A stretch of DNA of 53,657 bases from the IMG/VR virus record IMGVR_UViG_3300036715_001099, positions 1 to 53,657 of that record. One strand, 5' to 3'. The notes under the pieces are model-generated. The model was not told where the DNA came from, made no database searches, and saw nothing but the letters and a program-made list of their open reading frames with translations. The position numbers were made by a program, and so were the translations under genes. Position 1 is the first letter of the stretch; every line of letters begins with the position of its first letter. Below are positions 24,876 to 49,167 of this stretch, piece by piece. The stretch comes from a virus (Duplodnaviria; Caudoviricetes).

Positions 24876-25006
24876 GCGCCAGAGCCCGCGGCCTGTGCAG
24901 GCTATGCCACGGGCCGGGCCGCCTGCCGTTAGCCCTCTGGCGGGGCGTATAGGACGCCGAACTGGGCCTCGCCGGCCCGGGGCGCGCTCATAGACCCACA
25001 AACGCA

Positions 25007-25044
25007 GCGGGCCCGGCTCCTTTTCAGGAACCGGGCCCGCTTTT
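25007..25044 (+). terminator. terminator at the convergence of the two transcription arms
   Basis: GCGGGCCCGG...CCGGGCCCGC followed by TTTT. Confidence 0.7.
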
Positions 25045-25075
25045 CGTCGTTGAAGCTCAGTCCACCAACCGCTGG

Positions 25076-25474
25076 CTACTTCGCCTCGGTCAGCTTGACG
25101 AATCCGTGCTTCTCGTCCCATCGCAAGTCGGCCATCCGCCCGCCCGCGGCGAGCAGCTGCTCGACCGTCTGCCCGTCATTCGTGTAGAGGGCGAAGCGCG
25201 CCTGGCCGTGCTCGGTGCGCTTGGGGTTCTCGGTCGCGAGAACCTCGATGGTCGACGAGAGCAGCGCGGCCTTCTTCAGCTGGCCTTCGGTCGGCGCCTT
25301 CGGCTCCTTCGGGGTCTCCACCTCGCCCTCGGTGGGGGTCGCGGCGGCGGGGGCGACCTTCGCCGGCTTCGCGGGCTTCGCGGGCTTCGCGGCGGGCGCA
25401 GCGGCGGGCGCAGCGGCGGGCGCAGCGGCGGGCGCAGCGACTGGGGCGGTCTTCGGGGCAGTCTTCGGGGCCAT
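25076..25474 (-). CDS. ADLRWD-domain protein A with Pro/Ala/Lys histone H1-like N-terminus
   Basis: ENPKR...ARFALY...TVEQLLAAGGRMADLRWDEKHG; AGGAG RBS; PAAA and PAK tandem repeats. Confidence 0.85.
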   Translation of the reverse strand: MAPKTAPKTAPVAAPAAAPAAAPAAAPAAKPAKPAKPAKVAPAAATPTEGEVETPKEPKAPTEGQLKKAALLSSTIEVLATENPKRTEHGQARFALYTNDGQTVEQLLAAGGRMADLRWDEKHGFVKLTEAK

Positions 25475-25607
25475 GATGTTGCTCCTGGGGATTCCAGCGT
25501 TTGCTGGTTGGATGCGCCGAGCACCATTGCTCGGTGTGAGGATGTATAGCGTGGGCTACGTAGGAGTGCAAGTTCTTTCGTACTTATTTTGCCAAGTGCC
25601 TGAATTT

Positions 25608-25835
25608 TCAGGTCTTTTTCTGAGCCTCCTCGTGCTCGTCATACAGGTACAGCCGGGCCACAGTGCGATTCCCAAGCTTCAGCCAGGCCGCGCTGACCTC
25701 CTTGCCTGTGGGCGCAGCGGCGACGAGCAGCCCCAGGAATGCCTTGATGGCTGTGCGGTCGTTCGGCTCCATCATGGTGGAGGGCCGCGGCTGCTTACCG
25801 CCCGGCCCGAGGAAGAGGTACGTGTACTCCTTCAC
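25608..25835 (-). CDS. hypothetical protein
   Basis: GTGA overlap with the upstream ORF. Confidence 0.6.
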   Translation of the reverse strand: MKEYTYLFLGPGGKQPRPSTMMEPNDRTAIKAFLGLLVAAAPTGKEVSAAWLKLGNRTVARLYLYDEHEEAQKKT

Positions 25836-26095
25836 GACTCAAACTCCTTGCCGCAAAAGCACGCCTGCGCCGAGATGGGATTCAACTCGGTGCAACCGCC
25901 GCACACCTTCGCCAGCTGGTAGCCTCCGGGCGTGGCGCAGTCCGCCCCGGGCACCGCATTCTCGCCCTCTCCGCGGAAGAGCTTCCGGGCCAGCTGGCCC
26001 GCCCCGTCCACGGCCCGAACGAGCAGTGCGTGTTCCTTGGTCAAGGTCTTCAGCGCCTGGCGCATGGTGCTCGGTCCACGATTTCGCTTTGCCAT
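25832..26095 (-). CDS. hypothetical protein with C-terminal zinc ribbon
   Basis: AAGGAG RBS; KVCGGC..LN...A..C.CG. Confidence 0.7.
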   Translation of the reverse strand: MAKRNRGPSTMRQALKTLTKEHALLVRAVDGAGQLARKLFRGEGENAVPGADCATPGGYQLAKVCGGCTELNPISAQACFCGKEFES

Positions 26096-26110
26096 GGTCT
26101 GCTCCTTGTG

Positions 26111-26290
26111 CTACGATGAAGGGTTGTCGCGGAGATGTTGTGCGGCCATCTTCTCCACGCGCTGCGCCTGCTCTTCTTGCGGACCACGTTGGCCCGGCTC
26201 TGCGCGCCATGCCGCGGCGCAGCGCAGAAGGTACGCGTGATGCTCCCGTCGGTTCCGCAGGTTGTTGTCCGCTCCAAGAAACTTCCTCAC
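26111..26290 (-). CDS. hypothetical protein (59 aa, not in ORF track)
   Basis: GGAGG RBS then GTG; MRKFLGADNNLRNRREHHAYLLRCAAAW...QHLRDNPSS. Confidence 0.55.
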   Translation of the reverse strand: MRKFLGADNNLRNRREHHAYLLRCAAAWRAEPGQRGPQEEQAQRVEKMAAQHLRDNPSS

Positions 26291-26522
26291 GTGTACCTCC
26301 CAGGTACCGCGCCGACCCTACACGGGCCGGGCGCAGCGTGCAACCATGAACCTAACTGCGAGCCGTGGCGTCGAACGCCTTGCGCGACTGGCGCTTCGCC
26401 ATCGGCCGCGCGCAGCGGGTGCAAGCGTTCAACCGAACCGAAGCGTGCTTCCCAGCTGCGCTGTTCATGCGAGAAGAGTAACCCGGGGCTTCGCAGGTTG
26501 CAAGCCCCGGGATGACGATTTC

Positions 26523-26879
26523 TTACTTCTTGTAGATGTAGCCCACCATCAGGTCCTTCTGCACACCCGTCATCAGCCACACCGCGGCCATGGCGCCCTC
26601 CGGCATCCCAATCTCGCGGCGGGCGTAGACCCACACGCTACTCACGCCGACGATGCGCCCGTCGAAGTACCGAGGACGCTGGCCGTAGCTCCAGCCCGTG
26701 GTCACCACACGCAGCGGGTTCTCGCGGTCCCGGGCATGCTTCTCGTACTGCCGACCGTCCATGTCGCGCATGAAGGCGGCGAGGTACGTGCCATTCAGGC
26801 CGAGCAGGTAGGCCTCCTTCCCAGCGATCATCTTCAGCTCGTACTGCGCCTTCTTGTTGGACGTGGTGGCCGGGGCCAT
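26523..26879 (-). CDS. hypothetical early protein
   Basis: Promoter cassette plus AGGAG RBS before ATG 26879. Confidence 0.75.
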   Translation of the reverse strand: MAPATTSNKKAQYELKMIAGKEAYLLGLNGTYLAAFMRDMDGRQYEKHARDRENPLRVVTTGWSYGQRPRYFDGRIVGVSSVWVYARREIGMPEGAMAAVWLMTGVQKDLMVGYIYKK

Positions 26880-26971
26880 GTGCGACTCCTGTGTTGCGCG
26901 GTGTGAAAGAAGAGTAGCAAAGATCGTCGCGCTGCGCAAGTAGCAGCGCGACGAATGTTGTAAAGCCGACG

Positions 26972-27193
26972 CTACCACCCGAAGAAGCTGAGCGTGTCGC
27001 ACTTCGCCTGTATGCGGCGGAGTAGCTTGGGGCTGACCACGCCGCCCGTCACGCGGAGCACGCCCTCGGTCTGGTTGCACCACGCGGTCTCCTGACCGCT
27101 GCGCGTAACGCTCAGGCTGTACGCATTCTCGCGCTCCACCACAACCACCCCGCCCGCGTCGCGCAGGGTGAACGACTTGGGCGGGGTGTTCAT
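26972..27193 (-). CDS. hypothetical early protein
   Basis: Starts 1 nt after the upstream stop. Confidence 0.65.
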   Translation of the reverse strand: MNTPPKSFTLRDAGGVVVVERENAYSLSVTRSGQETAWCNQTEGVLRVTGGVVSPKLLRRIQAKCDTLSFFGW

Positions 27194-27194
27194 G

Positions 27195-27398
27195 CTAGGC
27201 CACCTTCACGGCGAGCGTAGTGCCGCAGGTGTGGTTCCGCATCTCTAGGCTGTAGGCCTCGGGCTCCTCCGCGTCGGTGGGGTCCGCAGGCACGTCCCAG
27301 GTCTTCGGGTCGGGTAGCTGCGCCCATTCGGCCGCGGTGATCGCCACGCCGCACTTCGTGCAACGTTTGGGAAACTCGCCGGCCACTGGGGTCTTCAT
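27195..27398 (-). CDS. small zinc-binding early protein
   Basis: PKRCTKCG...LEMRNHTCGTTL; promoter cassette and AAGGAG RBS. Confidence 0.7.
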   Translation of the reverse strand: MKTPVAGEFPKRCTKCGVAITAAEWAQLPDPKTWDVPADPTDAEEPEAYSLEMRNHTCGTTLAVKVA

Positions 27399-27475
27399 GC
27401 TGGGCTCCTTGCTGCGCGGCACCATTGCCGTGAGAGAAGAGTAGCAACCCTTCTCCCGCGGCGCAACAACATTCG

Positions 27476-27733
27476 TCACACCTGCTCGCCGTTGGCATCG
27501 CGCGCCGTGACGTGGTGGGTGTGGCCACACCCGCGGCACTCAGCCAGGAGGTCTTCGCTGCCACCACCGACCAGCCGACCGTCTTCGGTCATGTTGGCGT
27601 GGCAGGACTCACAGAGGAACTTGCCGCCCATGCCCTGGAGGCGGATGGTGCCCTGCCGCGCAGGGGCCAGCTGGAGGGTGACGTTGCCGTCGCAGGAGGT
27701 AAGCTTGGCGGCCTTCAGGGAGATGGTGGGCAT
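27476..27733 (-). CDS. small zinc-finger early protein
   Basis: CESC and CRGC pairs; promoter cassette and GGAG RBS. Confidence 0.7.
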   Translation of the reverse strand: MPTISLKAAKLTSCDGNVTLQLAPARQGTIRLQGMGGKFLCESCHANMTEDGRLVGGGSEDLLAECRGCGHTHHVTARDANGEQV

Positions 27734-27835
27734 GTGCGGCTCCGCGGCGCTTGGTTAGTGGGAGAGTGTTGCGCGCCTTGTGAAAGAAGAGTAGCGCGGG
27801 CTCACGGGGAACGCAAGTGCTTTGTGACGAATGTT

Positions 27836-27873
27836 GTAAACTCGGCGCAGGCCCCGCGCTGCGCCGAGTTTAC
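27836..27873. repeat. 15-bp stem, 8-nt loop hairpin, copy 1
   Basis: GTAAACTCGGCGCAG-gccccgcg-CTGCGCCGAGTTTAC. Confidence 0.85.
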
Positions 27874-27880
27874 GAGTGGG

Positions 27881-28528
27881 CTACTTCCCCAGAATCACGA
27901 TGCCCTTGCTGACATCCCAGCGCAGGTCGGCCATGGTGCCGCCGAGCGCCAGGAACTCCGCGACCGTAGTCGCTTTGTTGTAGTACGCATCGAACCGGGC
28001 CGCCGAGGCGCCACGCTTCGTGACCCCGGGCTTGAAGGTGAGCGACTGCGCGGGGTTCATGGCCATCGGGTTCTTTCGGCCCATTCGGACCACGTCGGCC
28101 ACATCGCCGACGAGCTTGGCCACGGGGTCCACGGTAGGCCCCGGCTTCGGCGTCGTCACCTCGGGCTCCACAGGCAGCGCAGCGGGCGGAGGCGACTTCA
28201 CGTGGGGCGCCATGGCCACCTCGGCGGGCCGCGGGGTGACCAGCGGGCTCGCGGCCTGTGCGGCCTGCTTCATCTCAAACTCCTTCTGGCCCGCGTTCTC
28301 GGTGGCGATGTGCAGCTGCTCCAACGCGCCGAGCAGCTTCTCCCGCGGGATGCTGGGGTCGGCCTTCTGCGCCTGGAGCCCGTGGCCCTTCGCCAGGCCG
28401 ACGAGGCGCTTGTGGTCCAGGTGAAGCTGCGGCATGGTGTACGCGGCCCACAGTTCGCGCGCCTTGATGACATGCGCCGGGGCAGACGTGGTGGGCTTGA
28501 CTGCGGACTTCGGGGACTTGGTTGCCAT
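27881..28528 (-). CDS. ADLRWD-domain protein B
   Basis: KRGASAARFDAYYNKATTVAEFLALGGTMADLRWDVSKG; start ATG 28528 after a promoter cassette. Confidence 0.85.
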   Translation of the reverse strand: MATKSPKSAVKPTTSAPAHVIKARELWAAYTMPQLHLDHKRLVGLAKGHGLQAQKADPSIPREKLLGALEQLHIATENAGQKEFEMKQAAQAASPLVTPRPAEVAMAPHVKSPPPAALPVEPEVTTPKPGPTVDPVAKLVGDVADVVRMGRKNPMAMNPAQSLTFKPGVTKRGASAARFDAYYNKATTVAEFLALGGTMADLRWDVSKGIVILGK

Positions 28529-28640
28529 GGTGAAGCTCCGGGTTCGACGTGGTTGCTGCGTTGACTGCGCCCTACAAGAGGAAGAGTAACCCGGGGCTCG
28601 CAGGATTGCAAGTCCCGGTTGTACGATTTGTGACGATTTG

Positions 28641-29165
28641 TTACGGAACGAGCTTGAAGATGCCGTGGGCCAGATCCCAGCGGAGGTCGGCGCGCGTGCC
28701 GCCGAGGGCGAGGAACTCGCCAACCGTGGTCGCGCCGCTGTAGGCTTCGAACCGAGCCGCGCAGGCGCCACGCTTGCCCATCCCGTCCACGGCCTGAATC
28801 TTCGTGTCCGGGGCCAGCTGCGCGGCCTTCGCCTTCGCCGGCTTCGCAGCCTGCGCGACCGTGGTCGGCGCCTGGCCCATGCGCTCGTCGAAGTAGGCCG
28901 CGGCCTGCGCGTTCGTGGCGTTGTCAGTGGAAATCTCGCAGGTCTGCCACACGCTCTTCGCGGTCTGCCCGTTGGCCTTGCGCCCGCGGCCGATGCCCGG
29001 CTCCTCATTGACCGCCTCCGCCCCGACCAGCCCTGCGGCGTCCAGCTTACCGAGCGCGTTGCGCGCGGCCGAGGCGCTGATGCCGAAGTGCTCGGCGACG
29101 TCCGTGGTGTGGACGGCGAACTCGGCGAAGACGTAGAGGTAGATGGACTTCAGGTCGGTGGTCAT
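28641..29165 (-). CDS. ADLRWD-domain protein C with N-terminal winged HTH
   Basis: TTDVAEHFGISASAARNALGKLDAAGLV (wHTH); KRGACAARFEAY...GGTRADLRWDLAHG. Confidence 0.85.
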   Translation of the reverse strand: MTTDLKSIYLYVFAEFAVHTTDVAEHFGISASAARNALGKLDAAGLVGAEAVNEEPGIGRGRKANGQTAKSVWQTCEISTDNATNAQAAAYFDERMGQAPTTVAQAAKPAKAKAAQLAPDTKIQAVDGMGKRGACAARFEAYSGATTVGEFLALGGTRADLRWDLAHGIFKLVP

Positions 29166-29268
29166 TTGCGGCTCCAGGCGGCGAGGTTGTTTGTTGCGCC
29201 GTTGAAAGAAGAGTAGCGCAGGTGTTCCGGTAATGCAAGCGACTATCTTCGGGTTCGTGACGATTTCT

Positions 29269-29306
29269 GTAAACTCCGCGCAGCGGGCAGGCTGCGCGGA
29301 GTTTAC
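29269..29306. repeat. 15-bp stem, 8-nt loop hairpin, copy 2
   Basis: GTAAACTCCGCGCAG-cgggcagg-CTGCGCGGAGTTTAC; compensatory change relative to copy 1. Confidence 0.85.
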
Positions 29307-29313
29307 GAGTGGC

Positions 29314-29583
29314 CTACTTGGAGACGACCGCGTAGCCGTGCGCGAGGTCCCAGCGCAGGTCGGCCATCTTCCCGCCGAGCAGGATGAACTCGGCGACCGA
29401 GGTGGCTGCGCTGTACTTCGCGAAGCGGGCGAAAGACGACGTGCCAGGCCGCTTCGGGTTTTCAGTGACGAAGCGCAGCCCCGTGACCGTGGTGTCGGTG
29501 CTGACCACCTTGCGCATGTCCCGGAGAACGGCGACGTCGGCGTACTTCGGGGAGGTGGCGTTCTTCAGGACGTTGGCGGACAT
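29314..29583 (-). CDS. ADLRWD-domain protein D
   Basis: ENPKRPGTSSFARFAKY...GGKMADLRWDLAHG; GGAG RBS; promoter cassette. Confidence 0.85.
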   Translation of the reverse strand: MSANVLKNATSPKYADVAVLRDMRKVVSTDTTVTGLRFVTENPKRPGTSSFARFAKYSAATSVAEFILLGGKMADLRWDLAHGYAVVSK

Positions 29584-29677
29584 GTGAGGCTCCAGGTGTT
29601 GCGTGAGGCGCGGGATGCGCCGTTGAAAGAAGAGTAGCAAGGTTCTTCAGGCGTTGCAAGTACCTTCTTCGTTTTAT

Positions 29678-29896
29678 TTACTTGACCACGGTGACGAACC
29701 CGTGAGCGAAGTCCCAGCGGAGGTCCGCAGCGGTGCCGCCGAGGAGGAACATCTCCGCGATGCAAGTAGCAGCGCAGTAGCGAGCGAACCGGGCCGCCGA
29801 GGCGCCACGCTTGCTGACGCCAGCCTTGAAAGCAATCTTCGTGACCTTCGTGCTGTTCGACTTGACGGTACGGAGATCGCGGATCGAGCGGGCCAT
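29678..29896 (-). CDS. ADLRWD-domain protein E (near stand-alone domain)
   Basis: KRGASAARFARY...GGTAADLRWDFAHG; GGAG RBS; promoter cassette. Confidence 0.85.
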   Translation of the reverse strand: MARSIRDLRTVKSNSTKVTKIAFKAGVSKRGASAARFARYCAATCIAEMFLLGGTAADLRWDFAHGFVTVVK

Positions 29897-30079
29897 GGTA
29901 GACTCCAGGTTCAGCGGGTTGACTGCGTTTGTGAGAGAAGAGTAACAGACTTCTTTGAGCGCTGCAACTTCTTTCTTCACTTTGTTTCGCGGCTTGCTGC
30001 GCACCGCACCGCGTCCCAACAAGAGAGAGGATAGTACCATCCTCTAAGGAACGCAAGCCCCTCGATGACGATTTCTGAA

Positions 30080-30117
30080 GAAAGTTCCCAAGTGCCTGGA
30101 ATCACTTGGGAACTTTC
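30080..30117. repeat. 15-bp stem, 8-nt loop hairpin, copy 3 (different sequence)
   Basis: GAAAGTTCCCAAGTG-cctggaat-CACTTGGGAACTTTC. Confidence 0.8.
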
Positions 30118-30125
30118 GAAGGCCG

Positions 30126-30899
30126 CTACTCGCAGCGTGCCGCGTGGATGCTGGGCTGAATCGCGACGAAGGGCCGCGGGGCGCTGCACAGGCCGGCGAT
30201 GTCGTCCTCCATGGCCTGTGCAGCGTAGTCCAGCGCGTTCCAGGGAGCCTGCGCCACAGCCTCGAGGCGCTCCTTGGCGCACCGTGCGCAGCCGCAGAAG
30301 CGGCTCTGCCCGCCGACGCACAGAGCGTCCTGCTCTTCCTTCGGCATCTCACGGCCACAGTCTACGCAGGCGTTGTTCAGGTAGCTACAGCCGCCAAGCT
30401 GCGCGCAGCGCGAAGGGTCCGTGGCGCTCGGCACGTCGTCGGCCAGCTGGAGTGGCGCCTGCTCGTACTCCGGGCGCGTGGTGGTCACGCCAGGCGCGTA
30501 CTCCGGCTCCACCACGGCGATGGGCTGGCCGCAGGTGTGGCAGTCCGCCGAGCCGCCGAAGATGTGGCCGTCGCGCTTGCACTCGGCCGCGCGGTCCGCC
30601 AGGTACTCGCCACGGTATGCGTTCACGCCCTGCGCAAGCGCCGCGTTGAAGATGTGGCTGGCCAGGTACTCCGCCGCCTCGGTCAGTTCCGCGTTGTTGC
30701 GCGGGGTCCGCACGTTCACCACGATGCCCTCGGCGCGGGCCATGGTCACAGCCGCCTTGTAGCGGTCCATCCGGCCCTCCACAGTGTGCCTGTAGTCCCG
30801 CTCCGACGTGAAGGTGGTCTCGTAGCCAGTCTGGAACCCGTAGTCCTTGCAGGCGAAGAGGGCGTAGTGGAAGGCGTCCTGAATCTTGCTGGCGTCCAT
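30126..30899 (-). CDS. hypothetical Cys-rich early protein
   Basis: Promoter cassette plus GGAG RBS; several CxxC motifs. Confidence 0.75.
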   Translation of the reverse strand: MDASKIQDAFHYALFACKDYGFQTGYETTFTSERDYRHTVEGRMDRYKAAVTMARAEGIVVNVRTPRNNAELTEAAEYLASHIFNAALAQGVNAYRGEYLADRAAECKRDGHIFGGSADCHTCGQPIAVVEPEYAPGVTTTRPEYEQAPLQLADDVPSATDPSRCAQLGGCSYLNNACVDCGREMPKEEQDALCVGGQSRFCGCARCAKERLEAVAQAPWNALDYAAQAMEDDIAGLCSAPRPFVAIQPSIHAARCE

Positions 30900-30998
30900 G
30901 GTGTGACTCCGGTTCGGCGTTGGCCGCGCCCTGTTGCGCGGTGTGAAGGAAGAGTAACCCGGGGCTCGCGGGATTGCAAGCCCCTTCTTCAAGTTTCT

Positions 30999-31250
30999 TC
31001 AAGCTTCTTCGCGGGGCATCCGGGTCCCGCAGCTGTGGCGCCCCACGTACATCTCGGAGCCGTCGGCGTACTCGTAGCAGGTGTCATCCCCGTCCGGGCT
31101 GGCAAACGCCTTCCCAGCGCGCATGTCGGCTTCGCCCTGCGCGGCGGCCATGTCCCGCACCTCCCGCTTCCGCTTACCAGCCACGATTCGTGCCACAGCC
31201 ATCGCGTACTCCGCCTGCGTGCCCTGGAATGCCGTCGGATCGTAACCCAT
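30999..31250 (-). CDS. hypothetical early protein
   Basis: Promoter cassette plus AAGGAG RBS before ATG 31250. Confidence 0.7.
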   Translation of the reverse strand: MGYDPTAFQGTQAEYAMAVARIVAGKRKREVRDMAAAQGEADMRAGKAFASPDGDDTCYEYADGSEMYVGRHSCGTRMPREEA

Positions 31251-31338
31251 GTTCAACTCCTTGCTGCGCGGAATTGCGCGGTGTGAAAGAAGAGTAACCC
31301 AGGGCTCGCGGGATTGCAAGCCCCGGGTCACAATTATT

Positions 31339-31602
31339 TTAGAAGTGCTTATCGAACTCCGCCAGGGCCATCGCCTCGGTGTACGCGGGGCCGCGGTAGC
31401 CGGACTGGAAGGCCTCGGCGGGACCAACGTTGTGCCAGTAGACCCCGTCCGCGCAGCCGACCATGTTGGCCTTGATGAGATGCCTGGCCAGGGCCTCAAC
31501 CTCGGGGACCGTGACGCCCACGGCCTGCGCCAGTTCGTTCATGTTGGGGTCCATGTTGTGGAAGATGAACAGGAAGGCGGTCTTTATCTTGTTGCGATCC
31601 AT
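31339..31602 (-). CDS. small winged-HTH-like early protein
   Basis: MNELAQAVGVTVPEVEALARHLIKANMV; promoter cassette. Confidence 0.65.
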   Translation of the reverse strand: MDRNKIKTAFLFIFHNMDPNMNELAQAVGVTVPEVEALARHLIKANMVGCADGVYWHNVGPAEAFQSGYRGPAYTEAMALAEFDKHF

Positions 31603-31680
31603 TTTCGGCTCCTTGTTGCGCGGCACCATTGCCGTGAAAGAAGAGTAGCACAGCGCTCGGCGATTGCAAGCCCCTTCTTC

Positions 31681-31716
31681 AAAATAAAAGCGGGGCCAGC
31701 TGCGCGGCTGGCCCCG
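31681..31716 (-). terminator. intrinsic terminator
   Basis: Minus strand CGGGGCCAGC-cgcgca-GCTGGCCCCG then CTTTTATTTT. Confidence 0.8.
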
Positions 31717-31722
31717 TGGTGC

Positions 31723-32034
31723 TCAGCCCGGATAGCTGGCATCCCAGGGCGCGCCCGTGTAGGCGTTCCACCCTTCGGCTTGGCCGCACAGGAAGATGGT
31801 GGCTGCGAGCCAGCTGGCGTAGCGATCCCACGCGGGCCCTGTGGCGCACTGTGGCGGGCGCAGCGCGTAGATACCCACCACAGCCGCGCAGTTCACGGCA
31901 CGCTGCGCGTAGTCGACCTGTTCGCTGATGCTTTGCGCACAGTCGTTGGTCGATTCGTGACCGTAGCGCATCCCGCCATCTTGCATGGCAGCGATCGCCA
32001 AATGGTAGGCCCGCTGCAATGTATCCTTATTCAT
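31723..32034 (-). CDS. hypothetical early protein
   Basis: Promoter cassette plus TAAGGAG RBS. Confidence 0.7.
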   Translation of the reverse strand: MNKDTLQRAYHLAIAAMQDGGMRYGHESTNDCAQSISEQVDYAQRAVNCAAVVGIYALRPPQCATGPAWDRYASWLAATIFLCGQAEGWNAYTGAPWDASYPG

Positions 32035-32110
32035 TTGCGTCTCCTTACTGCGCGGCACCATTGCCGTGAAAGAAGAGTAGCACTGGCTCCCACCGAACGC
32101 AAGCCCCTCA

Positions 32111-32779
32111 TCACAAAAACTTCACGTAACCCTTTTTCATGTCCCATGCAAGATCCGCACTCGTACCGCCCCGGGCGTGGTACTCCGCGACCGTTGGGGC
32201 GCCCATGTAGCCGGCGAACCGGGCCGCCGAGGCGCCACGCTTCGGGTTCGCCTGTACGAGCCACTCCAAGCGCCGCACGTCGGCCAGAGCGTGCGCAGCC
32301 ACACCTGCGGCGACCTTGACCCCAGACAGCTTGGTAACGACGAGCTCGTTCGGCAGGCCCATCCGCCTGCAAGAAGAGTGCGCCCGGCGCTCGCCCGGCA
32401 CAAACCGCTTGAAGTAGAAGACATGATCGCACGCGGGGCATACACCCTTGAAGCCTGTGGTGGGCGGGGGAATGACCGCGTCGGCTTCGCTGAAGTACCG
32501 CTCGGGCTTGCACCCGAGCGACACGGCCCACCTCTGCCAGAGCGGCCCGTGGCCTGCGGCGTAGCCTGCGATCGCGTGGGCGATCTCGTGGAGGATGGTG
32601 TCTAGCACAGCGGGCCGCTCGTTGGCTTCGGTCAACTCCACTGACAGGCAGATCTCCATGGCCTCATACTTGCACATCCCGAAGGACTTGGAGCTACGCA
32701 CGAAGCTGAACACCCATCGGGCGTCCAGGTAGCGGGACATCTCATGGCGGGCCAGTTGCGCAGCTTCGATCAGGTTCAT
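32111..32779 (-). CDS. SprT-like zinc metalloprotease fused to ADLRWD domain (protein F)
   Basis: G.C......I.LS...DTILHEIAHA....GHG..W SprT motif, CxxC; C-terminal NPKRGASAARF..Y...GGTSADLAWDMKKG. Confidence 0.85.
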   Translation of the reverse strand: MNLIEAAQLARHEMSRYLDARWVFSFVRSSKSFGMCKYEAMEICLSVELTEANERPAVLDTILHEIAHAIAGYAAGHGPLWQRWAVSLGCKPERYFSEADAVIPPPTTGFKGVCPACDHVFYFKRFVPGERRAHSSCRRMGLPNELVVTKLSGVKVAAGVAAHALADVRRLEWLVQANPKRGASAARFAGYMGAPTVAEYHARGGTSADLAWDMKKGYVKFL

Positions 32780-32875
32780 GTGGTGTTCTCCTAGCGAGAA
32801 GGCAGGTGTAGCAGAGCTCGCGCCCCAACGCAAGCGGCCCGATGACGATTTCTCGCCAACGGGCCGCGGGTGGAT

Positions 32876-32995
32876 GGTCGGTTCTCAAGCGTACCACAGA
32901 TCGCTCGAGCGGTGTAAGAAATCTTCGAGCGTCGGCGGGGCGGTCAAGGTCGGTTCTCAAGCGTACCACAGATCGCTCGAGCGGTGTAAGAAATC
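32876..32995. repeat. two exact 48-bp direct repeats 24 bp apart (tandem promoter with palindromic core)
   Basis: GGTCGGTTCTCAAGCGTACCACAGATCGCTCGAGCGGTGTAAGAAATC at 32876-32923 and 32948-32995. Confidence 0.9.
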
Positions 32996-33210
32996 AGCGC
33001 AGCCGACGCTCTCGGTGCTTTGCGTCGGCTGCGCCGGACTTTGCGCCCCGTTTGACAGCCAAACCGCGCCAGGCGCAGCCGCTTGGCTTTACAGCGTAGA
33101 AAGCCCCTTGTGGCTACCCGCGCCCATGTGCTAGCCCGCCGTCGCTCTGGCGGGGCGCCTGGCGCTCCGATTTTGCTTGCCAAGCGCCCCGCAGCGTGCC
33201 AACGGCTCGG

Positions 33211-39008: not shown

Positions 39009-39389
39009 CTACTTCTTGACCTCGGGGACCTTGCTGCCGACCTCGGCCTCAATCAGCAGCAAGTAGCGACGCAGGTCGCGGATGTCGTCCATGATGCCCT
39101 CGGCCCGCTTGTCGCCCTCCACAGCCCTGAAGATGTTGTAGTCGTACTTCCCGACGGCGAGTTCGAGTCGGTCCCATTTCCGCGCAGCCATCATGAAGGC
39201 GCCCACACCACCACGCTTCTTCCACGACGTGCCGTAGTTCATGTGAGATGCGGCCAGGCTGTTCGCATCTGCGAGCGCAGCGTCCAGCACCGCGTTCGCC
39301 GGAAACCCGTCAGCCTGTGCAGTGCGCAGAATGGGCGGCGTCCCACTCACCACGAAGTCCGTACCACCCGGCGTCTTCTCGTCAGACAT
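39009..39389 (-). CDS. nucleotide-modification-associated (Nmad1-like, all-alpha NTP pyrophosphohydrolase-related) protein
   Basis: NYG.SWKKRGGVGAFMM.ARKWDRLE...D.I.DLRRYLLLIEA; inside the modification cluster. Confidence 0.65.
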   Translation of the reverse strand: MSDEKTPGGTDFVVSGTPPILRTAQADGFPANAVLDAALADANSLAASHMNYGTSWKKRGGVGAFMMAARKWDRLELAVGKYDYNIFRAVEGDKRAEGIMDDIRDLRRYLLLIEAEVGSKVPEVKK

Positions 39390-39939
39390 CGTCGAAGCTC
39401 TCAGTCAGGGCCTGCGTGAAGTACGACACACCAGGGAGGCCCGTCTCGGTGGCGTAAGTGAGGGCGTTCTTGAACACGCTCTCCAAGTGCTTCGTGCGGT
39501 TGCCCATCTCGCGCTCGTGAAGACAGTTGAATGCCAGGTCCAGCGCGTCGCTCGCCTTCACCACCCTCTGCTCGAGCGGAGTGAGGTGCGTATAGATCAG
39601 GAACTTCTCGTCGAAGCGCGCCTCAAGCAGTGTGACCGCATTGCGCACAGACTCGCTGTACCGCTTGACCGGCGCAGGGATGTCGCCCGTCACGAGCTCG
39701 GCGGCATCGTGGTAGAGCAGCGCCAGCATCACGCTCAGCATATTCACAGCGGCCGAGCCCAGCGTCTCGCAGAAGTGGACGCCGAGGATCAGCGATCCGT
39801 AGACGTGCTGAGCATCCGTATGGTGGTTCAGCGTGGGAATGGCGTGCATTCGCTTGACCCGCCCGCTGCGGTAGAGGGTCTGGATTCGCTGGTACTGCGT
39901 AGGCTTGAACTCGGGGTCCAGCAGTCGAATCTCGCTCAT
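39382..39939 (-). CDS. HD-domain 5'-deoxynucleotidase (YfbR-like)
   Basis: V.R.H......AQH.Y, ALLYHDAAE..TGDIPAPVK, K.SD.LD. Confidence 0.85.
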   Translation of the reverse strand: MSEIRLLDPEFKPTQYQRIQTLYRSGRVKRMHAIPTLNHHTDAQHVYGSLILGVHFCETLGSAAVNMLSVMLALLYHDAAELVTGDIPAPVKRYSESVRNAVTLLEARFDEKFLIYTHLTPLEQRVVKASDALDLAFNCLHEREMGNRTKHLESVFKNALTYATETGLPGVSYFTQALTESFDDV

Positions 39940-39963: not shown

Positions 39964-41013
39964 TTACTTTGCTTCCGGGTGCGCCTTCAGCCACAGCTGG
40001 CCCGCCCGGCTCCAGTCGCTGGCGTGGCACTCCTCGAGGAATCCCTCGTCCCTGTGCAGCCACGCATTCCACATCGGGATTGCGACCTCCTGCCACCACG
40101 CCGTCTCGTAGTGATCGACGGTCTGGGACCTCGGGCCGTGCTCATCGAAGTCTTCGAAGAAGCTGGCCAGGTCGTCGTCCCATCCCGTGTCGCCGGCGCA
40201 CATCGGCGTCGCAGCCACGCCACCCTTCGCGTAGAGGTCATCGCTGACCGGGTCGCCGTGGTCGAGCTCTCCGCTGACGCGCGCCCACACCTTCGAAGAC
40301 CCGCCTTCGGTGTAGACGTGGAACGAGTCGCTGATCTGAATCATCTGGCCTACCTCCACGCCGAGCTTCCCGGCGATGTACTCCTGGAGCATGGAGAAGT
40401 GGACTGCGTTCGCGCCGTACGCACCCCAGACCATGTCGTTGGAGCGACAGCAGATGGTCATGCGCAGCGCCCCGTCGCGCAGCTTGAAGTAGAGGATGGA
40501 GTTGCACGGGATGTCCTTGCTGTCGATCCCGCCAACCTGCCTCACCACCCCATCGGGGTCCTGCGCGCCGAACGTCCGCAGGTCGTGCCGCGTGTCCCAC
40601 ATGGCGATCACGCCGCGACGCGTGTTCTTGTCACGCTTGATGACCTCCACCACGGCCTGAATCTGGTCGATGCCGAAGGCCGTGCGCCACCGCCATCCAT
40701 AGGCGCCTTGCATCAGCCATCCGTTGTCACTGAAACTCGCCATGTGCTTCACGATGGTCGCAGGGAACCGAACGTCGTTCCGGCCCGCCAGCATCCAGAG
40801 CGCTTCGAACAGGTGAAAGAACGGGTTGGCGTCGCGCACCGCGCTGAACAGGACGCGCTCAGTGGGCCTGTCGTAGGTGGTGATAACCGGGGCGGGCCAC
40901 TCCAAGACCTTCGTGCCGCGTGCCGCGATGGCGAACGACTGACGCGCGAAGATGTGAAGGAGCTCAGCCCCACGCTGAAACGCCCCGTTGACGTTGCGAA
41001 TGTTGATCTCCAT
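39964..41013 (-). CDS. thymidylate synthase homolog, probable dUMP hydroxymethylase
   Basis: NPFF...E.LW..AG, GAYG.R, TRR, KDIPCN, RSND..WG..GAN (Asn at the dUMP-specificity site), SFHVY. Confidence 0.85.
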   Translation of the reverse strand: MEINIRNVNGAFQRGAELLHIFARQSFAIAARGTKVLEWPAPVITTYDRPTERVLFSAVRDANPFFHLFEALWMLAGRNDVRFPATIVKHMASFSDNGWLMQGAYGWRWRTAFGIDQIQAVVEVIKRDKNTRRGVIAMWDTRHDLRTFGAQDPDGVVRQVGGIDSKDIPCNSILYFKLRDGALRMTICCRSNDMVWGAYGANAVHFSMLQEYIAGKLGVEVGQMIQISDSFHVYTEGGSSKVWARVSGELDHGDPVSDDLYAKGGVAATPMCAGDTGWDDDLASFFEDFDEHGPRSQTVDHYETAWWQEVAIPMWNAWLHRDEGFLEECHASDWSRAGQLWLKAHPEAK

Positions 41014-41017
41014 GGGT

Positions 41018-41869
41018 CTAGACCTTTCCCTTGACTGCCGTCTTCAGTGACTTCTGGCGCAGCGCCTCGGCCTCCGCAGCGGCCTTGACCCTCGCGTTGT
41101 GCCCGACCGCGTTGCGCCACGAGATGACAACGTCCTGCCGTGTGGCGCCCTCCATGCCTTCCCAGGCGGGCTTCTCCACGACCTTGACGTACTCGCTGTG
41201 GAGCTCCTTCAAGCGCAGCGCGCTGGCGTTGTGGCGCTCGAGCGTCCGCCAGGTGGAACAGCCTCCGGTCGCGTTGCTCGTGCCCATCGTGCAGCGCCAC
41301 TCCAGGCTGACCCGGTTATTGAATCCGGCCTTCATCAGTTGGAGCGTCATGTGAAAGTCCTCCATGCACCACCACGACTCAGGCCCGAGAATGAAGCTCG
41401 CCTTGTTGGCGAACACGACCGGGACGTTGTAGGCGAGGCAGTACATCATCCGCCCGGACATGTGGCTCTGCGTAACCGGGGCTGCGTAGGCCAGCTGTCG
41501 CACGCCCCATCCGCAGTGAGGCACCTCGTCCAGCGTGGTCTCGATCCACTGGAGCGCCTCCATCACCTCTGCCGGCGAGCAGTCGGTGATCTTTCCGTCG
41601 TCTCGCCGGCGCTGAACGTGCCGCATGTCGTCATCCATCATGACGACCTTGTCCCAACCATTCTTCTTCGCGGTGTCGAGGACAAACTGCCTCACAGCGG
41701 AGATACCCATCTTGTCGCAGACCAGCACCGAGCGACCGAGCGCCAGGTGCGCAGGAGCCTCCTCCTTCGTGCAGACGATGGATGTGACGGCGCGCGCAGC
41801 GGGCGGAAGCGCGTTCCAGGTGTGTTGCTTGTTGACACGGTTCAGCGTGGGAATGAAGATACGCAGCAT
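41018..41869 (-). CDS. GT-A fold glycosyltransferase (TET/JBP-associated, GREB1-like DNA glycosyltransferase family)
   Basis: IFIPT..R, GI..VRQ, MMDDD (DxD), EDF...LQL...G, GGCS..RT. Confidence 0.75.
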   Translation of the reverse strand: MLRIFIPTLNRVNKQHTWNALPPAARAVTSIVCTKEEAPAHLALGRSVLVCDKMGISAVRQFVLDTAKKNGWDKVVMMDDDMRHVQRRRDDGKITDCSPAEVMEALQWIETTLDEVPHCGWGVRQLAYAAPVTQSHMSGRMMYCLAYNVPVVFANKASFILGPESWWCMEDFHMTLQLMKAGFNNRVSLEWRCTMGTSNATGGCSTWRTLERHNASALRLKELHSEYVKVVEKPAWEGMEGATRQDVVISWRNAVGHNARVKAAAEAEALRQKSLKTAVKGKV

Positions 41870-41878
41870 GGTCGCTCC

Positions 41879-42754
41879 TTACTTCTTGGGCTTCGGGTGA
41901 TGATACGTGGAACGTGGACGGCCTTGACCGAGCCTGACTCGCTCGTACTTGTCGAACTCACAAAGGCAGAACTGAACGTCGTGGGCGGAGAGCGGCTTGA
42001 TACCCGTGCCAATGAGTTCAGCATTCACAGCACCCTGCACAGCCATCAACTCGGCGACCCAGAAGGCCTCCTTGCCGCCTCCGTAGTGCAGGTCCCGCTC
42101 CTGTAGGCGGTTGATACCGCGCCGAGCGCCCGGCCCTACAGGACTCCAGGTCAGCGCGTCGTCCGCGTCCTTGCCGAAGCGCGTCAGGAGCACGTCCTGT
42201 AGAACCTCCTTGCTCATGAATCCGCTCCCGCCGAAGCCAGGTACAGTCTTCAGCACGTCGTACGCCGCTTCCCAGCTGCGCCGCATCTTTAGCGCGGACA
42301 TCACCATCGGGGCGCGCTTCCACATGCTGCCGATGAAGTCACAGACCACAACTTCTTTCGGCTCAGTCCGGCCACAGTTCGTGATGACGTAGGCACCTGT
42401 GAAGACCCGAGCCCCCGCGCCGAGCCGAGCCCGCGCAGTCTGGATGACGCTCTTCGCGACGTCGTCGTTCCAGTCATTGAGCCAGCCCAGATGCTCCATG
42501 AATTCGAAGGTGCCAAAGTACCTGGCGATCGTGCAGTTGAGCAGCGTCACTTCGGGCTTCGTCTTCGCGTTGATGTTCTTGTCGTAGATCGCCTTGAACC
42601 GCTTCGTGGCCGCGTCGTCCTCTCGGTGAACGTTCGTGAACTTGTACTTGTGGAGAATGGGGTCCTTGGTCCACGGGGACGGGAGCCCGGCTGCGCGCTT
42701 GACGCGTATGGACTCGCGCTCCCGGATGTAGCCTGCGAAGGCTTCGGTGTTCAC
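41879..42754 (-). CDS. 5-hydroxymethyluracil DNA kinase (aGPT-Pplase1 family)
   Basis: ERE.IR.......PWT.DPIL..YKFTNV.REDD, FTGAY, GPGA.RG..R, Q..LCEFDKY.R. Confidence 0.85.
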   Translation of the reverse strand: MNTEAFAGYIRERESIRVKRAAGLPSPWTKDPILHKYKFTNVHREDDAATKRFKAIYDKNINAKTKPEVTLLNCTIARYFGTFEFMEHLGWLNDWNDDVAKSVIQTARARLGAGARVFTGAYVITNCGRTEPKEVVVCDFIGSMWKRAPMVMSALKMRRSWEAAYDVLKTVPGFGGSGFMSKEVLQDVLLTRFGKDADDALTWSPVGPGARRGINRLQERDLHYGGGKEAFWVAELMAVQGAVNAELIGTGIKPLSAHDVQFCLCEFDKYERVRLGQGRPRSTYHHPKPKK

Positions 42755-43620
42755 AGGAGCTCCATGGCGTCAACGGTGAAGTGTCCATCGACACAGGTCG
42801 GGCAGCGCGTGCGCAGCGGCGGAAGCTCTTCGTAGACGGTGCCGGGGAGTTGCACACCGTAGATCAGCGGTCGGATGTCTGCGGCCGACACTGGCCATGT
42901 CACGAGCCCAGTGCAGCGCCAGCACATGCCGCGCGCCGTAAAGCAGGCCCCTAGCTGCCCCGCTGGAGGGCTAACGGTGCCGGGCCCGGCCTGTGGGGTG
43001 GGTGCCGTTGGCGCCCTTGCCTGCGGCTGTGCTGCGAAGTCGCGCTTACGCACAGGCTCCTCAAGTAGCTTGGGAATCTTGTACGCGAACATCTCGTCGA
43101 GCGCCGCGTTGCGCGCGGTGAAGTAGCTCGGGACATCCGACTCGAGCCGCACCATCTCAACCCCGGCGATCTTCGCAAGCCACCCGACCACCTTGGACTC
43201 CCGTGGCTCACGGCTCGGGTACGTGTCGAGCTCGTACACGACGCGCTTGATTCCACTTGCCAGCACCACGTTCTTCATGCAAGGCGCGCACGGGATATGA
43301 GTGCAGACCAGCGACGCGGTACTCAGGTCAACACCTGCGCGCAGCGCCTTGCGAACAGCATTCACCTCAGCGTGAATGACGAGCTCATACTTCGTGAGCT
43401 TGTTCTCGGTTGTCTCGCGCTGATTCCAGGTCTCCTCAGCGTCCGGCACGCCGACAGGGAACCCGTTGTACCCGATGAACAACCCGCCGCTGACCGGGTC
43501 GTAGATGCAAGCGCCGACCTTCGTGCTCGGGTCCTTGCTGCGCGACTCCGCCCACAGCTTGCACACCGCGAGAATCGCTTCTTCAGTGCTCAGCTTCGAC
43601 TTCAGGATGTTCGGTTGCAT
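42751..43620 (-). CDS. dCMP deaminase with C-terminal CxxC...CxxC extension
   Basis: RSKDPSTKVGA, GYNGFP.G, HAE.NA, PC..C. Confidence 0.9.
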   Translation of the reverse strand: MQPNILKSKLSTEEAILAVCKLWAESRSKDPSTKVGACIYDPVSGGLFIGYNGFPVGVPDAEETWNQRETTENKLTKYELVIHAEVNAVRKALRAGVDLSTASLVCTHIPCAPCMKNVVLASGIKRVVYELDTYPSREPRESKVVGWLAKIAGVEMVRLESDVPSYFTARNAALDEMFAYKIPKLLEEPVRKRDFAAQPQARAPTAPTPQAGPGTVSPPAGQLGACFTARGMCWRCTGLVTWPVSAADIRPLIYGVQLPGTVYEELPPLRTRCPTCVDGHFTVDAMELL

Positions 43621-43916
43621 CACGTTCCTTTCGCCTTGACAATCTGCCATGGCTTGAGCGCGGGCTTCGGCGGCTCGGGTGGTGGGATCTTCGCGGTCAG
43701 CTCTTTGCGCAGCGCCTCCATCTCCTCGTTGTGCGTGGCCTGCGCTTCGGCCAGGTGCTCCATCATCGCGGTCCAGGTTCCGAGTGCCACGCTCACGGTC
43801 CCCTTCTTCGCATCTTTGGCCATGCGGCCCATCGTGGTGATGGACTGCTCCAGCGTTCGCCGCACTGGCCCCTCTGTGCTCGGCAGTCGCCCGCCGCACG
43901 TCGTGCAACGCTTCAT
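43620..43916 (-). CDS. hypothetical protein
   Basis: ATGA overlap, AAGGAG RBS. Confidence 0.6.
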   Translation of the reverse strand: MKRCTTCGGRLPSTEGPVRRTLEQSITTMGRMAKDAKKGTVSVALGTWTAMMEHLAEAQATHNEEMEALRKELTAKIPPPEPPKPALKPWQIVKAKGT

Positions 43917-44278
43917 CGCCGCTCCTTGTTGTGGTTGAATCCGGTGCCGACCTCAACGCGCGGACCGCTGATGACTCCAGATCCCAGCCCGTACGACGTA
44001 CGCCACACTAGCCACCCGCGGCTGAACATGGGGTTCGTCACGCGCCAGTCTTCGGCGAGGTACTCCAGTCGGCTGATGCTACCGCCCACAGCCTGGATGC
44101 GCTCGTAGACACGCCGCTGCGCGAGCGACATCGAGTAAGTCTTCTTCGACTTGCGCTCGGCGCGCTCAGCGAGGTTGTGCTGTTGAGACTTCGGGAATTT
44201 GGCGAGGTACTCGCGAACGAGTTCACGGACCGTCGAGCCAATGGCGTTCTGCAGATTCGACTTCGTTTTCGATTGCAT
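43913..44278 (-). CDS. hypothetical protein
   Basis: GAGG RBS before ATG 44278. Confidence 0.55.
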   Translation of the reverse strand: MQSKTKSNLQNAIGSTVRELVREYLAKFPKSQQHNLAERAERKSKKTYSMSLAQRRVYERIQAVGGSISRLEYLAEDWRVTNPMFSRGWLVWRTSYGLGSGVISGPRVEVGTGFNHNKERR

Positions 44279-48898: not shown

Positions 48899-49167
48899 GG
48901 CGTCTCCTGTGCAACCTTCTTGTGTCGTTTGCGGCCGATCTCGTTGACGTGCTTCGGACAGTACCGCTTCGCGTCGGTGCCGTCCGCGGTAGCCCGGAAG
49001 TAACACTGATGCTCAGCAACAAGATCATCAGCAGCGACCGTGAATTCACACCGCACCTCCGGCCCCTTCTTGGGCTCCTGAAACACCTTCGTGAACGACA
49101 TTCCGAGCGGGTTGCTCGCTGCTCTAGGTACTTTCGGGTACATACTGCGCACGCCTCGGTTCGCCAT
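48895..49167 (-). CDS. hypothetical protein
   Basis: AAGGAG RBS; C/H residues. Confidence 0.55.
   Translation of the reverse strand: MANRGVRSMYPKVPRAASNPLGMSFTKVFQEPKKGPEVRCEFTVAADDLVAEHQCYFRATADGTDAKRYCPKHVNEIGRKRHKKVAQETP

Follow-up and report, generated by a model that had tools for sequence, protein, structure and literature searches.

We analyzed six small genes in the virus record IMGVR_UViG_3300036715_001099, whose complete 53,657 bp (CheckV 100%) constitute the window, that is, the whole stretch of DNA considered here. The six open reading frames (ORFs) lie on the minus strand, are numbered 1 to 6 by position (Table 1), and share one domain of approximately 55 amino acids at their C-terminal end. 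When aligned, the six copies have 14 invariant columns (K, R, A, R, F, Y, G, G, A, D, L, W, D, and G) and are 35 to 60% identical in the core. A profile built from them and searched against the window's 933 stop-to-stop frames of at least 30 amino acids recovered precisely these six genes, with E-values of 7.9e-34 to 5e-28, and the next-best frame had an E-value of 0.49; a separate profile search of the virus record returned the same six. A preliminary description of this DNA, made from the sequence alone, had reported a common C-terminal domain behind differing N termini in these genes. The ORFs, the alignment, and the profile search confirm the domain and its positions, and the N termini do differ: they comprise a PAK/PAAA tail, a Pro-rich region, a winged helix-turn-helix (HTH)-like region, two short leaders, and a SprT-like part.

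Residues 9 to 51 of gene 3 match the Pfam family FaeA above its threshold (E-value 1.4e-4; 22.6 bits versus 20.7), and they match Fe_dep_repress (E-value 3e-5; 24.6 bits versus 26) and MarR_2 (E-value 1.4e-3; 19.2 bits versus 27) below the respective cut-offs. Gene 6 is SprT-like, scoring 43.6 bits against PF10263 (cut-off 25.6; E-value 3e-11) and having HEIAH in its translation, and its N-terminal part also matches PHROG 3768, 6445, and 1006. The N-terminal region of gene 2 has no family match in Pfam. Because the PAK/PAAA tail of gene 1 (25357-25447) is encoded by head-to-tail tandem repeats of 9 and 12 nucleotides, its length likely varies by slippage.

Table 1. Positions of the six domain genes, the promoter-like cassettes, and the hypermodification genes in the window.
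Feature	Position	Strand	Description
Gene 1, 132 amino acids	25076..25474	-	PAK/PAAA-rich, histone-H1-like N-terminal tail; domain at approximately 25088-25276, E-value 5e-28 (2.0e-28 in the record search)
Gene 2, 215 amino acids	27881..28528	-	helical, then Pro-rich N-terminal region; domain at 27884-28078
Gene 3, 174 amino acids	28641..29165	-	winged-HTH-like N terminus, Ala/Lys-rich linker; domain at 28647-28838
Gene 4, 89 amino acids	29314..29583	-	short leader; domain at 29317-29514
Gene 5, 72 amino acids	29678..29896	-	minimal form with short basic leader; domain at 29681-29872
Gene 6, 222 amino acids	32111..32779	-	SprT-like zinc metalloprotease, Cys-rich stretch; domain at 32114-32305
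Array of 12 repeated promoter-like cassettes	26467..32116	-	CTTGCA-N16/17-TACTCTTCTTTCAC, then AGGAG-type ribosome site; before most small genes; repeat families D2, D3, D8, and D10
Hypermodification gene block	39964..43956	-	functional context; does not adjoin the six domain genes
Thymidylate-synthase-like gene	39964-41013	-	Pfam Thymidylat_synt, E-value 1.4e-14
TAGT-like glycosyltransferase	41018-41869	-	Pfam TAGT, E-value 1.4e-16
5-Hydroxymethyl-deoxyuridine (5-hmdU) DNA kinase (HMUDK)	41879-42754	-	Pfam HMUDK_hel, E-value 4.3e-35
dCMP-deaminase fusion	42751-43956	-	Pfam dCMP_cyt_deam_1, E-value 1.2e-15

The motif AGAAGAGTAR occurs in 10 copies versus 0.02 expected, in a single orientation and confined to 26.4 to 32.1 kb, and two one-base variants raise the number of cassettes to 12. 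What reads as a sigma-70-type promoter with a ribosome site is the canonical cassette CTTGCA-N16/17-TACTCT followed by an AGGAG-type site. It directly precedes genes 2, 3, 4, and 5, as the variant GGAAGAGTAA at 28575-28625 (repeat family D2) for gene 2 and at positions 29207 (gene 3), 29628 (gene 4), and 29936 (gene 5). The earlier claim that each gene has its own promoter cassette therefore largely stands, most clearly for genes 2 to 5. For genes 1 and 6 we identified only variant hexamers by eye, namely a promoter-like TTGCAC-N17-TATACA upstream of gene 1 and sigma-70-like hexamers upstream of gene 6. We infer the "early" timing of the block from its position and its promoters.

The domain family and its predicted fold

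The preliminary description could not assign the domain to a named family, and none that we searched covers it. Pfam gave no match over it in the six proteins or in 36 family members (the best score, to DUF7199 in 1 of the 36, was 13.3 bits against a cut-off of 27, with an E-value of 0.1); NCBIfam gave none at E-values of ≤0.1 in the six proteins, PHROGs gave none for genes 1, 2, 4, and 5, and the PDB sequences gave 0 matches at E-values of ≤10. A profile search of phage and metagenome proteins, which had been proposed as a check, recovered a very large family: the 36-sequence profile matched 5301 representatives of 50%-identity clusters at E-values of ≤1e-3 and 2077 at ≤1e-10. In the ESM Atlas, gene 5 matched only virus clusters named "hypothetical protein" and family protein P0060 had no usable match, and the cluster-member listings for 10 proteins contained no informative names.

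Among 201 proteins examined, the domain ends within 10 residues of the C terminus in 166 and is present more than once in 22. The family signature is N-P-K-[RK] ... R-[FY]-x-x-Y ... T-V ... D-[LI]-x-[WY]-D ... [FY]-I, in which N-P-K-[RK], R, [FY], Y, T-V, D, [WYH]-D, and [FY]-I are invariant family-wide. Net charge averages +2.9 in the core, and 86% of 218 instances are positive there. In the 40 amino acids that precede the core, Ala accounts for 17%, Lys for 16%, and Pro for 10%, and the net charge is +3.9; an RGR or GRxGP-like motif is present in 27 of 118 linkers.

The N-terminal partners are highly diverse. Among 115 regions of at least 50 amino acids, the largest similarity clusters have 24, 10, 6, and 4 members, and few partners in the 103 proteins scanned have a Pfam name (PHD/RING, SprT, an ATP-dependent DNA ligase domain, Rho_N, and the HTH family HTH_23). 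The domain is thus joined to many unrelated N termini, here and in metagenomes, which bears out the earlier idea of a portable module. The largest cluster (24 of 115) is a module of the approximate form L-x-x-L-Y-N ... K-P-[VI]-K-K-F-x-D-R-x-T-A that has no Pfam name; it is found in P0049, P0052, P0053, P0054, P0072, and gp18 of phage PhiJL001 (L038:2719-3174). Among 20 selected proteins, mostly the longest, seven (P0057, P0063, P0067, P0068, P0080, P0126, and P0127) combine an N-terminal tandem pair of domains with a C-terminal ADP-ribosyltransferase-exoenzyme domain, and four bear PHD fingers. One of the PHD proteins, eukaryotic in appearance, has 2067 amino acids with HA and AAA_11/AAA_12 helicase domains. 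PHD fingers together with tandem domain copies characterize the eukaryote-like proteins P0058, P0060, P0061, P0200, and P0081, and in eukaryote-like copies the Trp of ADLRWD is replaced by Tyr, Phe, His, or Asn.

We built a FastTree phylogeny of 218 domain instances from a short alignment (58 columns), after removing five rows identical to the window's copies. Genes 2 to 5 cluster with P0003, which is the nearest relative of gene 4 elsewhere, and with P0005; these four genes look like a local expansion. Genes 1 and 6 are nearest to other metagenomic sequences, and the last common node of all six copies spans 85 of the 218 tips. We therefore rejected in part the idea that the six copies stem from one recent burst, given that genes 1 and 6 have their closest neighbors elsewhere.

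We modeled two copies with AlphaFold2: gene 5 (36-row alignment), with a predicted local distance difference test score (pLDDT) of 79 and core blocks at 82 to 91, and the last 66 amino acids of gene 1, the most divergent copy (40 rows), with a pLDDT of 90.8 and a predicted template modeling score of 0.74. Both models have the element order strand, helix, short strand, helix, helix, strand, so the C termini that the preliminary description took to share a fold do so in the two copies modeled. Foldseek found no match in the PDB at E-values of ≤0.001 for either model, and its sole meaningful row in BFVD was a sequence homologue, PhiJL001 gp18 (E-value 9.8e-3). With VIA-align, 10 chains reached Z scores of at least 5 against the gene 1 model, all below the Z of approximately 8 that we treat as more than a common arrangement. 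The top matches were the C-terminal region of Rv2067c (5.9), the PriA winged helix on double-stranded DNA (5.8; root mean square deviation 2.7, 62 aligned), a FAM91A1 domain (5.7), the MetAP2 insert (5.7 and 5.3; MetAP2/Ebp1), the GATOR1/SEA winged helices (5.6 and 5.1; NPRL winged helix), and an RRE-containing enzyme (5.5). Many winged-HTH regulators followed at 3.5 to 4.7, and the lower-ranked neighbors included SelB, Fur/Zur/PerR, IclR, MexR, MecI, Z-alpha, TFE-alpha, and DprA. The gene 5 model gave the same winged-helix theme at Z scores of ≤4.1. The picture is consistent with a winged-helix-like fold, with every score below the decisive level.

Winged-helix DNA-binding domains (PriA, Fur/Zur/PerR, IclR, MarR/MexR, MecI, Z-alpha, and TFE-alpha) resemble the predicted domain in size and in having three short helices on a small three-stranded sheet. 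However, the present domain matches no Pfam HTH or winged-helix model, its Z scores do not exceed 5.9, one strand of its sheet is N-terminal where winged helices have a C-terminal hairpin, and its third helix is predicted to contain two conserved Asp and an aromatic residue. Linker histones H1/H5 consist of a winged-helix globular domain and a Lys/Ala/Pro-rich tail, and a small winged-helix-like domain with such a basic tail is what gene 1 and the family linkers offer, although the tail of gene 1 is N-terminal to the domain. The linker-histone family PF00538 had no Pfam match at E-values of ≤1 in the six proteins or in the 36 family members.

DNA binding is the most likely activity of the domain, given the winged-helix-like model, the basic Lys/Ala/Pro linkers, and the partners that act on DNA. 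We favor it because the core is basic, the linkers are basic and of minor-groove type, the partners belong to DNA or chromatin, the domain forms tandem arrays, and it is tightly linked in genomes to enzymes that modify DNA once it has been replicated (below). The fusion partners that would act on DNA or chromatin, namely the winged HTH, SprT, DNA ligase, Rho_N, HTH_23, PHD, AAA_11/AAA_12 helicase, ribbon-helix-helix, and Phd/YefM parts, lend indirect support to this activity.

The same fold neighbors leave room for a module that binds protein or itself and does not contact DNA, docking its partners on the kinase, the glycosyltransferase, or a part of the replisome, or dimerizing them. The peptide-binding RRE is among the best fold neighbors (Z of 4.7 to 5.5 for the gene 1 model and 4.1 for the gene 5 model), the domain is often added where a DNA-binding domain is already present (the winged HTH of gene 3 and the ribbon-helix-helix and Phd/YefM parts of the antitoxins described below), and the tandem pairs in large proteins could mimic a dimer. 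We nevertheless regard this explanation as quite unlikely; the Lys/Ala/Pro-rich linkers with their RGR-type motifs and the positive charge of the core point to nucleic acid.

Occurrence beside thymidine hypermodification genes and elsewhere

By its profile matches, the window belongs to the phages with a thymidine hypermodification gene set, since it encodes both a thymidylate-synthase-like hydroxymethylase and a 5-hmdU DNA kinase. We located other carriers of the domain in IMG/VR with peptide-motif scans that are blind to these enzymes, which yielded 33 loci in 30 records. HMUDK (PF18723) was present in 14 of the 30 carrier records: 12 of the 13 with a completeness of at least 70% (13 of 14 counting the window) and only 2 of the 17 more fragmentary ones. 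The search for TAGT covered 16 of the 30 IMG/VR carriers, the window, and five GenBank phages. It found the gene in 15 of the 18 carriers tested, the exceptions being G005, G024, and the half-complete G015, and in 12 of the 14 carriers that are at least 70% complete, each of which has the kinase or TAGT. Four HMUDK phages that do not carry the domain (M6, RHph_TM26, PaMx11, and CN2) had no TAGT.

Against these proportions, searches with the window's proteins (tblastn) found the kinase in 218 of 50,697 GenBank phage records (0.43%) and a TAGT-like gene in 11 (0.02%). On these backgrounds the chance probabilities are approximately 1e-30 for the kinase and 1e-42 for TAGT, figures that ignore relatedness. 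For a second sample, chosen differently, we turned to the kinase-encoding stretches of IMG/VR, which number at least 494; from the best 80 we took 36 records with a length of 35 kb or more. The domain was found in 9 of these records and TAGT in 16; 8 had both, 1 had the domain only, 8 had TAGT only, and 19 had neither (one-sided Fisher test, P = 0.0029), and the lone record with the domain only is 58% complete. Among the 22 records that are at least 90% complete, the corresponding counts were 4, 0, 4, and 14 (P = 0.0096). Co-occurrence with 5-hmdU pathways, which the preliminary description had named as a point to examine, was therefore strongly positive (13 of 14 for the kinase and 12 of 14 for TAGT among the more complete carriers).

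The association is specific to this gene set. DpdA, the 7-deazaguanine DNA transglycosylase, does not travel along with the domain; it was found in 1 of 15 carriers, the window itself, and we rejected the possibility that the domain tracks 7-deazaguanine modification. We also rejected the possibility that the carriers are close kin of the window phage. The capsid protein of the window matched none of 16 records (14 carriers and the non-carriers M6 and PaMx11), a weak negative because the search had no positive control, and the carrier genomes range from 41 to 110 kb; on these two grounds the carriers do not form one tight clade. A tblastn search of the 50,697 GenBank phage records with gene 4 returned only PhiJL001 gp18, and this search is of low sensitivity and no census.

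Gene order links the domain to the same enzymes. In 14 of the 17 carriers with mapped positions (G001, G003, G005, G008, G009, G010, G012, G017, G023, G024, G025, G029, G030, and PhiJL001), one domain gene precedes HMUDK or TAGT on the same strand by less than 700 bp; G002, G013, and the window depart from this arrangement. G057 shows the same adjacency. In PhiJL001, gp18 lies 23 bp ahead of the kinase gene gp19, which is followed by the glucosyltransferase and the hydroxymethylase. The N-terminal halves of the enzyme-adjacent proteins differ, so conservation lies in the domain and in where it is placed. Such adjacency would also suit docking on one of these enzymes. A predicted complex of the window's HMUDK (11-row alignment) with gene 5 (36 rows) scored 0.01 (mark 0.32), which speaks neither for nor against binding.

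The number of copies per carrier ranges from one to six, mostly two or three, with five in G029 and G030 and six in G024. The six-fold expansion is therefore real in the window, as the preliminary description had stated, but it is neither unique nor exceptional among carriers. In G024, which bears the kinase, a protein of 1105 amino acids carries a tandem pair of domains in its N-terminal part and an ADP-ribosyltransferase-exoenzyme domain in its C-terminal part, and one of 908 amino acids combines the domain with NUDIX. Both genes (L055:2220-5537 and L055:5710-8436, minus strand) adjoin a DUF4376 gene of tail-fiber type, which suggests that their products may be virion proteins that travel with the DNA.

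To look beyond phages, we scanned 185,579 prokaryotic species genomes with two motifs, which is not a census of bacteria. The SAARFALY motif matched 20 stretches in these genomes, of which 0 were confirmed. The second motif matched at one locus, and the sole confirmed genome is a 7.3-Mb alphaproteobacterial metagenome-assembled genome (MAG; G031) with two copies of the domain (L057:4890-5854 and L058:3636-4768) and no match to HMUDK or TAGT. Both copies are in antitoxins encoded immediately upstream of PIN-domain toxins in ordinary chromosomal surroundings. In one antitoxin a Phd/YefM part follows the domain; the second begins with an Arc-like ribbon-helix-helix and carries the domain at its end. 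These copies fit a DNA-binding or sensing module in general. They also bear on docking: the phage enzymes are missing where the domain occurs in chromosomal antitoxins and in eukaryote-like PHD and helicase proteins, so a common target is hard to name. Because the domain is in eukaryote-like PHD-finger proteins and bacterial antitoxins, a single host-specific protein target is unlikely, and for the earlier suggestion that the domain docks on one host complex we found no support, these copies speaking against it.

We read the domain as a portable DNA tether tied to hypermodified phage DNA and give this reading a probability of roughly 0.5. Much of the evidence would serve equally well for a generic DNA or nucleoid binder that takes any DNA, or preferentially unmodified host DNA, and condenses or strips the host nucleoid, its link to the enzymes arising by co-inheritance of a gene block. 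The evidence from fold, charge, and partners is the same for both; the two bacterial copies are in PIN-toxin antitoxins in a genome that has neither HMUDK nor TAGT; the window's copies are in a separately promoted, early-looking block and not beside the enzymes; and a phage attacking the host nucleoid could make use of an H1-like tail and a SprT-type protease. However, the association (13 of 14 and 12 of 14 versus 0.43% and 0.02%) goes beyond what descent easily explains, and the capsid genes of the carriers appear unrelated. Further, the enzyme-adjacent copies vary in their N-terminal modules yet keep the domain and its position, and another modification gene, DpdA, does not travel with the domain. 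We consider a generic binder improbable on balance.

The preliminary description had also raised the possibility that the six proteins are a diversified set of decoys or inhibitors directed at a host defense system. A multicopy, diversified domain in an early-looking block with individual promoters would suit this role, as would the presence of the family in toxin-antitoxin modules and in ADP-ribosyltransferase fusions, both typical of conflict systems. Yet a strict small core joined to SprT, ligase, and helicase fits targeting better, and NCBIfam has no match over the domain (E-value ≤0.1), related to defense or otherwise, the PADLOC library lying outside that search. Nothing that we found supports a decoy set, and we regard it as very unlikely.

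Possible roles of the domain

How a tether to hypermodified DNA might work can be sketched from the chemistry of these phages, in which 5-hydroxymethyl-dU would take the place of thymidine and would afterward be phosphorylated and glycosylated within the DNA. The C5 adducts would fill the major groove, and ordinary binders are probably excluded from it. Because the adducts occupy that groove, a binder must recognize them or avoid the major groove. For recognition, the predicted third helix has a conserved Asp-x3-Asp and an aromatic residue that would match hydroxyl, sugar, or amine groups; for avoidance, the NPKR loop and the AT-hook-like linkers would suit the minor groove and the backbone. 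The domain would then tether the activities fused to it to DNA, most plausibly the phage's own hypermodified DNA, and the six separately promoted genes would place an H1-like condensing tail, a transcription-factor-like HTH, a SprT-type protease, and three further proteins on the DNA early. The six copies, the extent and makeup of the family, the predicted fold, and the co-occurrence and adjacency with the kinase and glycosyltransferase genes are what the analysis shows; the binding to DNA itself, the identity of that DNA, and the choice between reading and tolerating the modification are the parts of the tether reading that we infer.

A more specific version would make the domain a dedicated reader of glycosylated or phosphorylated 5-hydroxymethyl-dU, a mark like base J, that addresses enzymes, regulators, packaged ADP-ribosyltransferases, and condensing tails to the phage's own genome. 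Under this version the domain would later have been taken up by eukaryote-like PHD chromatin proteins, and by bacterial PIN toxin-antitoxins as a sensor of incoming modified phage DNA. We put it forward tentatively and think it unlikely in this full form.

Several observations weigh against tying the tether to hypermodified DNA, or against the tether itself. All fold matches are below the decisive level (best Z, 5.9; best Foldseek E-value, 0.65), the peptide-binding RRE domains, which do not bind DNA, score level with DNA-binding winged helices, and the predicted third helix has two near-invariant Asp, which is unusual for a helix that contacts DNA. The window's own copies adjoin neither the kinase nor the glycosyltransferase, the nearest of them being approximately 8 kb away. 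The association statistics take no account of shared descent or of co-transfer of gene blocks, and 8 of the 9 domain-positive records in the 36-record sample have only weak matches (E-values of 7.7e-5 to 6.6e-7). The domain is absent from the other 27 HMUDK-bearing records of that sample and from 8 of 9 GenBank phage records with HMUDK or TAGT that we searched by profile (M6, RHph_TM26, PaMx11, CN2, MW202897, LuckyBarnes, phiRSL1, and AB1I1T); it is therefore dispensable for the pathway and not an obligate component. Conversely, it is not confined to hypermodifying phages: eukaryote-like PHD proteins also carry it, and the antitoxin copies in the MAG, which has no HMUDK or TAGT match, oppose an absolute need for modified DNA.

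No test that we ran places the domain in the winged-helix, H1, TF1, or JBP1 families; it is a new family of a familiar sort of module. The J-DNA-binding domain of the kinetoplastid proteins JBP1 and JBP3, which reads glucosyl-hydroxymethyluracil, would be a functional analogue if the present domain reads glycosylated 5-hydroxymethyluracil, and it is likewise combined with other chromatin modules. We saw no match between the two, and the J-binding domain of JBP1 is larger, helical, and folded differently. HARE-HTH is a small HTH-type module of phage, restriction, and ASXL proteins, shared among phages, bacteria, and eukaryotic chromatin proteins, that comparative genomics has proposed as a reader of modified DNA; it has no Pfam match in our domain, and the conserved motifs differ. 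Proteases of DNA-protein crosslinks follow the logic of joining a protease to a DNA-binding part, and gene 6 likewise resembles the DNA-dependent metalloproteases Spartan/Wss1/SprT in combining a SprT-like HExxH protease with a putative DNA-binding module, which is, however, a different domain. TF1 of phage SPO1 is an HU-family (type II) protein with a fold unlike that of the present domain; it has no sequence relation to it, is encoded in a single copy, and is not a portable module. As a phage DNA-binding protein that prefers hydroxymethyluracil DNA, going by an entry in the reference list of PMC3969353 (Grove et al. 1996), TF1 offers a precedent for a phage with hydroxymethyluracil-type DNA that encodes its own adapted DNA-binding protein.

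TAGT and the kinase are said to have been first described by Iyer et al. in Nucleic Acids Research in 2013. Our literature search, which left supplementary files and that paper outside its scope, so that an earlier mention is possible, found no account of the domain, and the association with hypermodification genes appears to be undescribed in the literature searched. The terms "DNA-binding" and "DNA binding" occur 0 times in Lee 2018 (PMC5889632) and once, concerning endonucleases, in "Pathways of thymidine hypermodification" (PMC8989533). Work on hypermodified DNA has centered on the synthesis of the bases and on the blocking of restriction, and the papers searched do not address how phage proteins handle an adduct-filled major groove. 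A small domain that has more than 5000 sequence clusters, no database name, and a tie to the genes for TAGT and the 5-hmdU kinase offers a concrete candidate to fill this gap, and the 72-amino-acid protein of gene 5 makes the handling of hypermodified DNA directly testable. If the domain reads or tolerates the modification, it could serve as a detection tool for bases derived from 5-hydroxymethyluracil and as a genomic marker for phages with glycosylated thymidine, and it could explain how proteases, regulators, and injected enzymes are targeted. If it is a generic DNA binder only, domain databases should nonetheless give so large a family a name.

Genome surroundings of the six genes

The plus strand of the window contains the late genes (terminase, portal fused to a MuF-like part, major head protein, and endolysin), and the minus strand contains the replication and modification genes. 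The minus-strand set comprises a SNF2-type helicase, a PD-(D/E)XK nuclease, a DNA polymerase, an HD/YfbR-like nucleotidase, a ligase, a primase, DpdA, and the hypermodification genes. Small minus-strand genes fill the region from 25 to 33 kb, between the endolysin and the helicase, and six of them carry the shared C-terminal domain. A megablast search of positions 25000-33000 against GenBank phages found no near-identical phage DNA.

Within the modification genes, a YfbR-like HD 5'-deoxynucleotidase (39382-39939) lies just downstream of the thymidylate-synthase-like gene, and the dCMP-deaminase domain begins only at residue 125 of its 401-amino-acid protein, whose N-terminal part has no assignment. 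DpdA (49167-50006; E-value 2.7e-82) is encoded alongside the full 5-hmdU kinase and TAGT set, and the presence of both in one phage suggests two distinct base modifications.

On the plus strand, a single ORF of 733 amino acids (3881-6082) matches portal families in the initial two thirds of its length, residues 475 to 697 match families of MuF-like head-morphogenesis proteins, and on these matches it is a portal-MuF fusion. The gap of approximately 380 bp between the helicase and gene 6 contains two perfect 48-bp direct repeats (32876-32995) with a spacing of 72 bp, which may serve as operators, as an element of an origin, or as a terminator region.

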